Assembly: GCA_963740355.1 (NCBI GenBank)
Contig: CAVUDW010000002.1
Location: forward strand, 2,080,001-2,144,000
From: an uncultured Gemmatimonadaceae bacterium
GTDB taxonomy: Bacteria; Gemmatimonadota; Gemmatimonadetes; Gemmatimonadales; Gemmatimonadaceae
Length of the DNA stretch: 64,000 nucleotides
Direction: 5' to 3'
The translations under genes and the position numbers were made by a program. The notes beneath the pieces were generated by a model, which worked only from the letters and a program-made list of their open reading frames with translations, was not told where the DNA came from and made no database searches. Shown piece by piece: positions 622 to 3,256 of the stretch (the stretch's first letter is position 1; each line of letters begins with the position of its first letter).

Positions 622-968
622 GGGACGTGCTTGGATAGCTGATGCGGGCCGGTTTCGGTCGACGCCAATGCTGCATGAGAACTGCGGGGGCCATCATCGT
701 GACCAGCAGAACCACTGCAATCATCTGAGCCTCTGACGCAAAGAGTCTGGACGAGCCGGCACATCGGCGTGCCGGCACATCCCACTCCGCGCAAGTCTCG
801 GTCGCTGTCAGCCGGGCTTGAGCCCTCCTGTCGCGTCCGCTCCCTGCCGGGGCGCCGTACCCCCATCAGACGCCCCGATCCGCGGGAGGTAATGCGGTTC
901 GGTTCTCAGCCCACTCCGCTCCCTCGGGGCCACATCTCCCGTCCGCTGACGGCTGGCTGACGTCCGTT

Positions 969-1048
969 TGCATCGTGACGGAAGGGCAACAGCAATGGGG
1001 GGGAGGCCACGGAGCTCACTGAGTGCGACCAGCGCTACCAGCCGTGCT
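969..1048 (-). repeat. diverged inverted copy of the ~77-bp repeat unit, upstream of the GxxExxY gene
   Basis: 990-1026 CAGCAATGGGGGGGAGGCCACGGAGCTCACTGAGTGC matches the reverse complement of 1614-1650 at 33/37 positions; TGCATCG (969-975) and CGTGC (1043-1047) also match the unit ends in register. Confidence 0.85.
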
Positions 1049-1097
1049 TCGCCGCCATCGCTACGGCGGAGAAATCCATCATGGGGAGGCGGCGCCA

Positions 1098-1493
1098 ATG
1101 AGAGGTCTGTTCCGGTCACCAGAGGACGAGTTGGTCGAAACCGTGATTGGCTGTGCGATCGAGGTGCACCGGCACCTCGGACCTGGCCTTCTGGAGTCGA
1201 CATACGCCGCATGTCTTGCGTATGAGCTGCGACTGAAGGGGATTCCGTTTCAGACCGAGGTTCCGCTTCCCGTTCGATACAAGGACATGCAGCTCGAATG
1301 CGGTTATCGCACCGACATGATCGTCGACTCCCGCCTGATCATTGAGATCAAAAGCGTCGAGCGCCTGATTCGATTGCATTCCTCACAACTCATGACGTAC
1401 CTGCGCCTCTCCGGCATCCGCCTCGGATTTCTTTTCAACTTCAACGCCCCGCGTCTCGTCGACGGCATTCGTCGCATCAAGCTCTGGTTCTAA
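1098..1493 (+). CDS. GxxExxY protein (PD-(D/E)XK nuclease superfamily, PDDEXK_3-like)
   Basis: HRHLGPGLLESTY motif, then YRTDMIVD...IIEIKSV (D...ExK) and QLMTYL..GFLFNF; GGGGAGG RBS before ATG 1098; 131 aa. Confidence 0.93.
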   Translation: MRGLFRSPEDELVETVIGCAIEVHRHLGPGLLESTYAACLAYELRLKGIPFQTEVPLPVRYKDMQLECGYRTDMIVDSRLIIEIKSVERLIRLHSSQLMTYLRLSGIRLGFLFNFNAPRLVDGIRRIKLWF

Positions 1494-1513
1494 CAGCTGT
1501 AGTTGTCCTGCGG

Positions 1514-1698
1514 TGCACGATCGGCTGCCAATGGAGCACTCCGTGAGCTCCGTGTGCTCCCCCCCCCAATGCAGTTTGCGAAAGCACGCGATGCACGATC
1601 GGCTGCCAATGGAGCACTCCGTGAGCTCCGTGTGCTCCCCCCCAATGCTGTTTGCGAAGGCACGCGCTGCACGAACGCTGCGACTGGCACGCACTCCG
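1514..1698 (+). repeat. tandem array of ~77-bp units: two near-identical copies plus one degenerate partial copy
   Basis: Copy 1 1514-1591, copy 2 1592-1667 (TGCACGATCGGCTGCCAATGGAGCACTCCGTGAGCTCCGTGTGCT-C9/C7-AATGCWGTTTGCGAARGCACGCG); degenerate copy 3 from 1668 (TGCACGAACGCTGCGACTGGCACGCACTCCG). Confidence 0.93.
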
Positions 1699-1730: not shown

Positions 1731-2024
1731 GTGCTCTCCTTTCTGCTGCTGACACTGATTGTCGCGATTCTCGCCGGCGCCCGAGCGACGGGGCCGGGGT
1801 GGGCGGCACGCCTCGGACGCGCGCTGCGGTGGGGCGGAATGGTGGGACTGGTGGGATTCCTCGGCGGATTTTTCGGGCCGATGCTCTTCGCCCCCAGCGC
1901 CAACCAGGGGCCGATGGTCGGGATCTTCCTCACGGGACCGCTCGGCTTCGTGCTGGGCTTCATCATCGGTGCCGTACGCGAGATCCGCGACAGCCGAAAG
2001 CCTCACGACCCGCTCGCACTGTGA
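1731..2024 (+). CDS. small membrane protein (about 3 TM segments)
   Basis: Hydrophobic Gly-rich 97-aa ORF (GFLGGFFGPM...NQGPMVGIFLTGPLG); GTGA overlap with next gene. Confidence 0.75.
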   Translation: MLSFLLLTLIVAILAGARATGPGWAARLGRALRWGGMVGLVGFLGGFFGPMLFAPSANQGPMVGIFLTGPLGFVLGFIIGAVREIRDSRKPHDPLAL

Positions 2025-3256
2025 AAGACGTCATCATCATCGGCGCCGGCGCCGCCGGCACCATGGCCGCCATCTTCGCCGCCCGCAGCGGCGCGAGGGT
2101 GCGCCTGCTCGAACGCACCAGGGACGGCGGGCGAAAGATCCTCATCAGTGGCGGTGGGCGATGCAATGTGCTGCCGTCGCGGGTCGATGAAGCGCGCTTC
2201 GTCACCGACTCGTCGCCGAATATCCTCCGCAAGATCATCCGCTCCTGGCCGCTCGCCGAGCAGATCGCATTCTTCGAGCAGGACCTCGGTATTCCACTCG
2301 AACACGAGGAAGAGTCGCTCAAGCTCTTTCCCGCCTCGCACAAGGCGCGCGATGTCCGAGATGGTCTCATCGACTGCGCCGTGCGCAACGGCGTGCAATT
2401 CCTGACCGAGGTCGCGGTCAACGACATCGTGCCAGATGGCGCACGCTGGCACGTGCACTGCGACGATGGTCGCGTACTCGATGCCGACGCCGTGATCGTG
2501 GCGACCGGTGGGTACTCGGTGCCGAACACCGGGAGCGATGGTCGCGGCCTGGCGATCCTGCGCAAGCTGGGCCACACCATACACCCCACCTATGCCGCGC
2601 TGACGCCGGTCACCGTGGAGCCCAACGCCTTCACGGAGCTCTCCGGCATCTCGCTGCCGGTCACGATCACCGCGAAGTCCGGCAAGGAATCGGCGCGTGC
2701 CACCGGCGGCTTCCTGTTCACGCACCGTGGATACAGCGGTCCATCGGTCCTGAACGTGTCGCACGTCGCCGTCCGATCGAAGGCGAGCCATGTCGAACGG
2801 GCCGCACTGTCGGTCAAATGGACGCCGCTCGATGACGACGCCTGGAACCAGCGGTTGGCCCCGCATGGCGCACGGACCGTCTCTGGTGCCGTCCGCGCCG
2901 AGCTACCGGAACGACTGGCCAGCGTGCTCATCGACAGGGCAGGGGTCGACCCGCTGCGCACGCTGAGCGAATTGCGGCGCGACGAACGGCTGCGCCTGAT
3001 CGAGACACTCGTGCGCGGCGACCTCCCGTGGGCGGGGGATGAGGGCTACAAGAAGGCGGAGGTCACTGGCGGCGGAGTGAGTCTCTCCGAGATCGACCAT
3101 CGGACGATGGAGAGTCGCCTGCACCCAGGCCTCTTCCTGTGTGGCGAGATTCTCGACGCCTTCGGCCCGATCGGCGGCTACAACTTCCTCTGGGCGTGGT
3201 GCACGGGACGTGCGGCCGGCATTGCGGCCGCTGTTCCGGCGGGCATGGACAAGTGA
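2021..3256 (+). CDS. HI0933/YhiN (BaiN-like) family FAD-dependent oxidoreductase
   Basis: GAGAAG, GRKILISGGGRCN, FTHRGYSGP, VTGGGV, GPIGGYNF motifs; GTG start at 2021. Confidence 0.93.
   Translation: MKDVIIIGAGAAGTMAAIFAARSGARVRLLERTRDGGRKILISGGGRCNVLPSRVDEARFVTDSSPNILRKIIRSWPLAEQIAFFEQDLGIPLEHEEESLKLFPASHKARDVRDGLIDCAVRNGVQFLTEVAVNDIVPDGARWHVHCDDGRVLDADAVIVATGGYSVPNTGSDGRGLAILRKLGHTIHPTYAALTPVTVEPNAFTELSGISLPVTITAKSGKESARATGGFLFTHRGYSGPSVLNVSHVAVRSKASHVERAALSVKWTPLDDDAWNQRLAPHGARTVSGAVRAELPERLASVLIDRAGVDPLRTLSELRRDERLRLIETLVRGDLPWAGDEGYKKAEVTGGGVSLSEIDHRTMESRLHPGLFLCGEILDAFGPIGGYNFLWAWCTGRAAGIAAAVPAGMDK

Follow-up and report, generated by a model that had tools for sequence, protein, structure and literature searches.

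Why should a small nuclease gene stand between inverted copies of an intergenic repeat, and do gene and repeat belong together? The question is raised by a locus near the start of a 64,000-nucleotide stretch of DNA (hereafter the window) from an uncultured Gemmatimonadaceae bacterium, G000:C2:2080001-2144000, that is, contig C2 of genome G000 (5.45 Mb, 5 contigs). An earlier note on this DNA described a GxxExxY protein gene of 131 amino acids (aa) enclosed by inverted repeat units, and likened it to the association of REP-associated tyrosine transposases (RAYTs) with repetitive extragenic palindromes (REPs). In the reading favoured here, which we hold to be evenly balanced between right and wrong, the element at 895-1697 belongs to a family of inverted heptamer arrays and, as the member that carries the gene, is a very small selfish cassette in which an unrelated PD-(D/E)XK nuclease keeps with its repeat a partnership like that of RAYTs with REPINs, the hairpin-forming doublets of REPs. 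The dispersed repeat to which the flanking units belong is called family A. The features of the locus, in window coordinates, are as follows.

895..1697, plus strand: insertion of ~800 bp, approximate in extent, as compared with the empty sites of 13 same-genus genomes
886-894 and 1698-1708: conserved blocks bounding the cassette, GAGGTAATG and GGCTAGCTTGC, respectively
969..1052, minus strand: upstream unit of family A, inverted; conserved core 988-1026 (genome blastn match C2:2080988-2081026, minus, 90%)
1008..1023, plus strand: doubled heptamer CACGGAG-CT-CACTGAG, proposed protein-binding iterons, in the same sense as in the upstream arms of homologues
1083..1089, plus strand: GGGGAGG, a putative Shine-Dalgarno-like sequence 8 nt before the ATG
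1098..1493, plus strand: gene of the GxxExxY protein, 131 aa, motif and catalytic residues intact
1510..1698, plus strand: tandem array of 78-bp units of family A, with units 1510-1587 and 1588-1665 and a partial third, 1666-1698
1539..1554, plus strand: doubled heptamer CTCCGTG-AG-CTCCGTG, complementary sense, unit 1; 9-bp period 1539-1560
1617..1632, plus strand: doubled heptamer CTCCGTG-AG-CTCCGTG, complementary sense, unit 2; pairs with the upstream arm in the single-strand fold

The bracketing of the gene by an inverted unit upstream and a tandem array downstream was borne out by open reading frame (ORF), repeat, and inverted-repeat scans, and both sides carry the doubled heptamer that the earlier note had described. 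On the 5' side, CACGGAG was read at 1008-1014 and CACTGAG at 1017-1023, while on the 3' side CTCCGTG was located at 1539-1545, 1548-1554, 1617-1623, and 1626-1632. Several of the noted values were corrected. Tandem Repeats Finder gave a period of 78 for 1510-1698 (2.4 copies, 89% matches, score 286) instead of a unit of ~77 bp, the gap between the TAA codon (1491-1493) and the downstream array was 16 nt instead of 20 bp, and the cores of the upstream and downstream units, counted by hand in an alignment, were identical at 35/39 positions instead of 33/37. The inverted arms were 75% complementary over 65 nt (988-1052 / 1588-1652) and 90% complementary over 30 nt (997-1026 / 1536-1565). The borders of the insertion are only approximate because the intergenic DNA has diverged.

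The flanks of homologous genes were scored by the best Smith-Waterman alignment between the 250 nt upstream and the reverse complement of the 250 nt downstream. The loci were those of the most similar relatives, the best 80 of ~600 or more being taken from each of two collections, genome contigs (one genome per species) and metagenomes. Among the genome loci with usable flanks, 44/75 exceeded the 95th percentile of 486 shifted control windows (medians 29 vs 17). Against 156 other ORFs of those loci, 44/75 again lay above the 95th percentile (24.25; Mann-Whitney p 1.5e-11), and 20/75 above the 99th. The value of 24.25 was also exceeded by 40/74 metagenome loci and by 20/29 paralogues from 19 same-genus genomes. 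The enrichment of inverted repeats around homologues that the earlier note had proposed to test for is present in both collections. As the scored loci were the nearest relatives of the window protein, this result holds for a subfamily and not for all of PF13366. In 37/40 of the best-scoring loci, the arms were composed of 2-4 copies of a 7-nt unit of the CRYNNRG type with 8-11-nt spacing. The heptamers among the best loci were CACAGAG, CACGGAG, CACGAAG, CGCAAAG, CGCAGAG, CGCCGAG, CATGAAG, and CATGTAG, often preceded by (TT)CACC and often placed 0-25 nt from start or stop codons. Their sense upstream of the gene was uniform, and the CACGGAG pair of the window agrees with it. Moreover, the motif class was kept in Acidobacteriota, Planctomycetota, Chloroflexota, and Proteobacteria, the doubled heptamer of the window being its local form. 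Since the class is kept across phyla, recognition by a protein fits better than strand complementarity alone. It was concluded that gene and arms very probably form one evolutionary unit.

The protein was confirmed as a member of the PD-(D/E)XK superfamily, as had been stated for it. It matched PF13366 (PDDEXK_3; E 2e-41, 141.5 bits, cut-off 22) and TIGR04256 (GxxExxY; E 5.2e-42, 142.9 bits, cut-off 35), and in an alignment with 24 relatives the columns G30, E33, and Y36 and the triad D73, E83, and K85, corresponding to the D...E-x-K of PD-(D/E)XK, were invariant. An AlphaFold2 model (predicted local distance difference test score 92.5) assigns it a restriction-endonuclease-like alpha/beta fold, and the core of this predicted fold is held in common with the closest solved folds, all of them PD-(D/E)XK nucleases. 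These were 3ijm (uncharacterised, Spirosoma), the BpuSI nuclease domain, Cas4 SSO0001, and archaeal Hjc, with VIA-align Z values of 7.9, 7.5, 7.3, and 6.1, respectively, all in the range that the tool calls common. All Z values were below 8, and a transfer of function from these proteins is not justified. A sequence profile search for solved structures gave 0 matches at E <= 1, Foldseek with the model gave nothing at E <= 0.001, and the homodimer prediction gave no answer (score 0.00). The family is very large, with at least 7,983 of 8,000 scored candidates matching PF13366 / TIGR04256. The best non-self match was 71% identical to the window protein and many others were 57-66% identical, across phyla, with Lentisphaerae, Verrucomicrobia, and Thiothrix among the sources. 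The function of PF13366 is given as 'Unknown' in a 2012 survey of PD-(D/E)XK proteins (PMC3424549), and no link of the PF13366/GxxExxY family to flanking repeats was found in the literature searched, in which subscription journals were not covered.

The repeat does not belong to the cassette alone. Stand-alone copies, for which the earlier note had proposed a BLAST search, are present elsewhere in the genome: the 78-bp unit gave 102 blastn matches (E <= 1e-3) at 33 loci of G000. The 32 loci besides that of the cassette are gene-less, and nearly all of them are inverted arrays. The usual plan consists of 1-3 units reading CACGGAG, a spacer of ~65-110 bp, and 1-4 units reading CTCCGTG, and in a minority of loci the units are joined at the opposite end. 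Only at the window locus do the arms enclose a gene, within a gene-sized spacer of 484 bp. Taken singly, the unit is no palindrome and folded no better than shuffled sequences (z -0.39, -0.21, +1.67), whereas a gene-less pair formed a near-perfect hairpin (dG -66.6 vs -34.2 kcal/mol for shuffles, z -9.5). In the fold of the whole-cassette strand, the upstream arm paired with the second downstream unit (z -3.85). The single GxxExxY gene and the 33-locus family A constitute a REPIN-like population, an observation that is new here. The only other long-spacer locus, C2:1358665-1360465, consists of two clusters that surround a 266-aa ORF, hydrophobic in an N-terminal stretch. It was considered as the parent transposon of the family and rejected, the ORF showing no transposase likeness by eye; with this ORF so judged, no transposase was found inside any family A locus.

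The genome holds only two GxxExxY genes. The second, paralogue 2 (C2:2026770-2027190), encodes a protein 41% identical to that of the window, and upstream of it (C2:2026270-2027190 region) lie three tandem 89-bp units and an inverted one of another, more abundant family, whose core is an array of CGCGGAG / CGCGGGG. Since the repeats lie only 5' of paralogue 2 and its downstream flank is unique, this gene adjoins a gene-less pair and is not enclosed. In total, 68 clusters of doubled heptamers in both orientations were counted in G000, with CACGGAG as the dominant heptamer in 31, CGCAGAG in 20, and CGCGGAG in 16, and the order 'CACNGAG then CTCNGTG' in 59/68. Two Y1_Tnp (PF01797, RAYT-like) genes are also present, at C2:1530613-1530939 and C3:374781-375101, and are flanked on both sides by their own dispersed repeats, GATCAAGGGGTCAGAGATCTTGATC (~100-155 blast matches per flank segment) and CCGGTGACAGTGCACTCAT (~25 matches). 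These two loci are classical REP/RAYT pairs and provide an internal contrast in the same genome. As the RAYT genes are flanked by different repeats, the classical driver of dispersed palindromes is occupied by other families. At C3:~1187070-1187230 (L019:1240-1400), four copies of the RAYT-associated CCGGTGACAGTGCAC repeat stand directly beside a family A pair, several repeat families being piled up in this one expanded intergenic region, and the CCGGTGACAGTGCAC repeat adjoins family A at three further loci.

Same-genus genomes were compared at the site of the cassette. The comparison covered the 17 genomes, including G000, that show both flanks, from 20 genus genomes scanned in total; the neighbouring flavoprotein gene (2021-3256) has orthologues 74-84% identical in 18 same-genus genomes. 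An intact cassette was found in G000 and, with arms CACCGAG / CGCTGAG, in G011 and G017, and a broken one with a frameshift and a stop in G006 (arms CACCGAG / CACTGAG). This one intergenic site is filled in 4/17 genomes, one of the four cassettes being a pseudogene. Empty sites, which the earlier note had suggested looking for in relatives, were found in the other 13/17, with ~35-45 nt between the conserved blocks in the four that were measured. The cassette protein of G011/G017 was 59.5% identical to that of the window, and the neighbouring flavoprotein 80-82%. In a flavoprotein tree, which is a single-gene tree of moderate support, the filled genomes stood at three places: G006; G011 with G017, next to their empty sister G007; and G000, surrounded by empty genomes. 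The pattern is to be read either as repeated gain at one site or as an old, fast-evolving cassette that was often lost.

Only where the cassette is intact, in three genomes, was family A numerous: its unit gave 90 matches in G000, 17 in G011, 18 in G017, 1 each in G006 and G015, and 0 in the other 15 genus genomes. As kin are not independent, two or three lineages in effect stand behind this co-occurrence of family and cassette. Other kinds of GxxExxY genes were present in 19/20 genus genomes (0-4 per genome), and one genome (96% completeness) was without any GxxExxY match. This genome had the lowest doubled-heptamer count, 131 vs 92 for the control pattern, a reversed pattern that is inflated by arrays of three or more heptamers. 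Of ten G011/G017 loci of family A, mapped by means of flanks of 1.5 kb, only C3:1400649 was shared with G000; at two of the G011/G017 sites G000 had just 74 and 57 bp, and at one it carried the other family in place of family A. Likewise, two gene-less G000 loci of 395 bp and 272 bp corresponded to 33-47 bp (five genomes) and 77 bp, respectively, in relatives. Judged from these alignments of related genomes, the cassette and its gene-less relatives have evidently come and gone over a short time. New here are the phyletic match between family and cassette in one genus and the filled, broken, and empty states of one site.

Two further observations were made on the dispersed elements of these genomes. 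The intergenic site C3:1769152-1769578 is occupied by a CGCGGAG-family element in G000 and by a CACGGAG-family element in G017 (L191), a swap that suggests preferred landing sites or replacement. At three G011/G017 loci (L184:1600-2120, L189:1340-1920, and L192:1400-1880), family A pairs lie within a second, outer inverted pair with another doubled motif (CCGGAGAG / TCGGAGAG beside GATAGG), and branched, nested palindromes result.

The co-variation of protein and motif was evaluated by assigning to each gene the commonest flank heptamer with a count of at least 3, which was possible for 77/110 genes and later for 127/190. Base 3 was C with Arg126 in 120/120 genes and T with Ser or Ala in 6/7. 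Base 5 was A with Asn14 and G with Glu, Gly, or Asp, and base 2 was A with Leu129 in 69/85 and G with Asn129 in 26/35. In 50 added genes, Asn14 was present in 11/20 with A5 vs 1/30 with G5 (Fisher p 4e-5, kinship uncorrected). On the best tree, unsupported branches included, base 5 gave 17 pairs; Asn14 went with the base in 10 and against it in 0 (p 0.002), and residue 14 ranked first of all columns in this contrast test. The window protein, with E14, R126, L129, and N116, fits CACGGAG, and paralogue 2, with Asn129 and Gly116, fits a CGC-type motif, as in the family it adjoins. Residues of the protein may track bases of the heptamer (Asn14 with A5, Arg126 with C3), although this is only suggestive because the columns were picked post hoc and a protein of 125 aa gives a weak tree. 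The protein-repeat co-variation that the earlier note had envisaged was seen in part: the raw associations stood and that of Asn14 with A5 recurred in the added genes, but none was significant on well-supported branches.

On the favoured reading of a selfish cassette, we infer that the nuclease binds, cleaves, and mobilises the repeat. The 131-aa PD-(D/E)XK nuclease would recognise the CACGGAG iterons, which lie head-to-head on both sides of its gene, and would cut at or between the arrays, the substrate being either duplex DNA or a long hairpin or cruciform of the two arms. The break would then let host repair or replication copy, move, or delete the element. Since the gene-less inverted pairs carry the same proposed binding sites, they would be acted on in trans, as REPINs are by a single-copy RAYT. 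Paralogue 2 may serve the CGCGGRG-type families likewise.

The RAYT-analogous system proposed in the earlier note stood as regards the recurrent gene-repeat unit, the stand-alone copies, and the empty sites, and none of the sequence comparisons suggested there told against it. However, the cassette is not a member of the REP/RAYT class, its nuclease being PD-(D/E)XK and not HUH, and its unit not being a palindrome. REPIN/REP-RAYT systems, with Y1 HUH REP-associated tyrosine transposases as their enzymes, are among the nearest known counterparts (PMC3337134, PMC8049555, PMC5581495, and PMC8266576). As in those systems, a low-copy nuclease gene stands between inverted copies of a repeat dispersed in the genome, gene-less inverted doublets capable of forming hairpins outnumber the gene (1 gene among 33 family A loci), and different paralogues go with different repeat families. 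In contrast to them, the cassette protein matched only PF13366 and not the HUH family PF01797, and the core of the repeat is a direct array of 7-nt iterons in a 78-bp unit instead of a 20-40-nt palindrome. Moreover, RAYTs are mostly vertically inherited, as stated in the abstract of 10.1101/2022.05.22.493013, whereas the cassette is patchy in the genus (4/17). The likeness to REP/RAYT is one of logic only; the parts are unrelated. The ends of Tn7- and Mu-type transposons carry several transposase-binding sites. With these transposons, and with insertion sequences and miniature inverted-repeat transposable elements, the cassette shares inverted ends of repeated binding-site-like units, gene-less derivatives, and insertions that are polymorphic between relatives. 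However, it holds no DDE, serine, tyrosine, or HUH transposase, and PD-(D/E)XK proteins are not known to take part in transposition other than as the accessory TnsA.

Several observations weigh against the selfish reading. No target-site duplication was readable between filled and empty sites, the flanks being too diverged, and a 131-aa nuclease without another domain would be unusually small as the sole protein of a mobile element. Clear inverted flanks were lacking at 31/75 genome and 34/74 metagenome loci, and paralogue 2 has repeats on its upstream side only and not around the gene. The dispersed family A copies of G011/G017 read CACGGAG in 25 and 30 of 36 heptamers, and because the cassette arms of these genomes read CACCGAG or CGCTGAG, local gene and dispersed copies match imperfectly. 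The third array family, CGCAGAG, forms 20 clusters in G000 with no G000 gene carrying such arms; a GxxExxY gene with CGCAGAG arms is present in G006 (L146). The excess of arrays correlated only weakly with the number of genes per genome (rho 0.44, p 0.053, n 20, kin not independent). As for the co-variation, its columns were chosen after seeing the data, and the p of 0.002 rests on unsupported branches and would fail correction over ~130 columns. The 50 added genes alone gave 9 independent pairs, of which 4 agreed in direction and 0 ran counter to it (p 0.125), and well-supported branches gave only 1-4 independent contrasts, none significant.

An alternative that we consider unlikely, yet deserving of attention, is a homing-type parasite. 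In this case, the arrays would spread or persist by other means, and a free-standing endonuclease-like ORF would cut the central spacer and be copied in by recombinational repair, with the arms serving as homology. The ORF does occupy the very centre of what is otherwise a usual pair of complete units, where the spacer measures 484 bp vs 65-110 bp elsewhere, and array families without a matching gene exist; only 1/33 family A loci is filled, however, and the restriction of family A in numbers to genomes with an intact cassette is unexpected if the arrays are self-spreading. Cycles of gain, decay, and loss are typical of homing endonucleases. The cassette resembles them in being a small, patchy nuclease ORF, horizontally similar across phyla and strongly diverged in its proteins, with intact, decayed, and empty states at one syntenic site. 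It differs in its intergenic position, with no intron, intein, or conserved protein-coding target involved, and in that inverted iteron arrays, which also occur in dozens of gene-less copies, stand on both sides of the gene.

Just as unlikely, in our judgement, is a domesticated or regulatory role, in which a sequence-specific DNA- or RNA-binding nuclease would serve the host. The arms would be operators or an mRNA stem for expression or stability, the dispersed pairs would be REP-like structural or terminator elements that the protein binds or processes, and the turnover would be the gain and loss usual in intergenic DNA. The arms lie close to the ORF, often within 0-25 nt of its start and stop codons, and since the heptamers contain Shine-Dalgarno-like GGAG, GAAG, or AGAG and the arms their complements, a transcript would sequester these sequences. 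The fold of the whole-cassette strand (z -3.85) points the same way, as do the low copy number of the gene (0-4 per genome) and the position of the gene-less loci examined, which stand after stop codons and beside terminators. However, the protein is ~60% identical across phyla and patchy in the genus, and therefore horizontal movement fits better than a housekeeping role. The absence of the cassette from the site in 13/17 genomes and the 96%-complete genome without a GxxExxY match also speak against a host function.

The last alternative, namely that a dispersed REP-like repeat moved by something else landed by coincidence on both sides of an unrelated small gene, could draw on the at least five intergenic repeat families that pile up together in this genome and on paralogue 2, which merely adjoins a repeat cluster, but is very unlikely because the same architecture and motif class recur around homologues in many phyla, far above controls, and motif and protein co-vary in direction. 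An integron attC site was also considered and rejected by eye: RYYYAAC/GTTRRRY-type ends were not seen, nor a cassette array, nor an integrase in the neighbourhood.

The surroundings of the cassette were also surveyed. Its position is intergenic, between a divergent small gene on one side and a flavoprotein operon on the other. By Pfam, eight flanking ORFs from -7 kb to +7 kb, one 384-aa ORF being left out, included no transposase or integrase, in line with the earlier note; they comprised glutamate dehydrogenase, RidA, an LpoB-like protein, YbjN, a PD40 protein, and three ORFs without a match. A promoter scan of 600-2100 returned no sigma-70-like promoter, and a terminator scan of the same region gave two terminator-like sites, both within the ORF. 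The Rfam search of 1-2200 by E-value gave one chance-level match only (snoRNA sR38, E 0.47). Among the sequencing runs listed, none contained more than 0.22 of the sampled words and none was of RNA; contigs from four runs were short, and no junction, filled or empty, was spanned by them. A genus-wide conserved non-coding block at ~700-895 (...CTGACGCAAAG...GGCACATCGGCGTGCC...CGCGCAAGT.TCGG...GAGGTAATG), without an Rfam match, stands upstream of a small minus-strand hydrophobic ORF. On the other side, a 97-aa hydrophobic ORF (1731-2024) lies between the cassette and the flavoprotein gene. By tblastn, it was detected only in the genomes with an intact cassette (G000, G011, and G017; ~50% identity) and was absent from the 13 empty sites and from G006. 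It co-occurs with the intact cassette though it lies outside the arms and past a conserved block.

Beyond this locus, GxxExxY proteins may be the sole protein, a PD-(D/E)XK nuclease of ~125 aa, of an unrecognised and very widespread class of prokaryotic selfish elements. They would read 7-nt iterons by a simple residue-base code, in which residue 14 would correspond to base 5, Arg126 to base 3, and residue 129 to base 2, and would thereby found and maintain lineage-specific REP-like families of hairpin repeats. We advance this proposal tentatively and regard it as somewhat less probable than its opposite. If it is true, many 'orphan' intergenic repeat families of bacteria would gain an identifiable cause, and a minimal nuclease with predictable specificity would be at hand. 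The genome of G000 offers a natural experiment in this respect: a single gene is set against 33 repeat loci, the other paralogue has another family beside it, the RAYT/REP pairs serve as internal controls, and empty sites are present in close relatives. The link of GxxExxY proteins to a flank motif and to dispersed repeats gives a very large family a testable role, and the few agents that account for the interspersed repeats of bacteria would be joined by an enzyme class with no relation to HUH.

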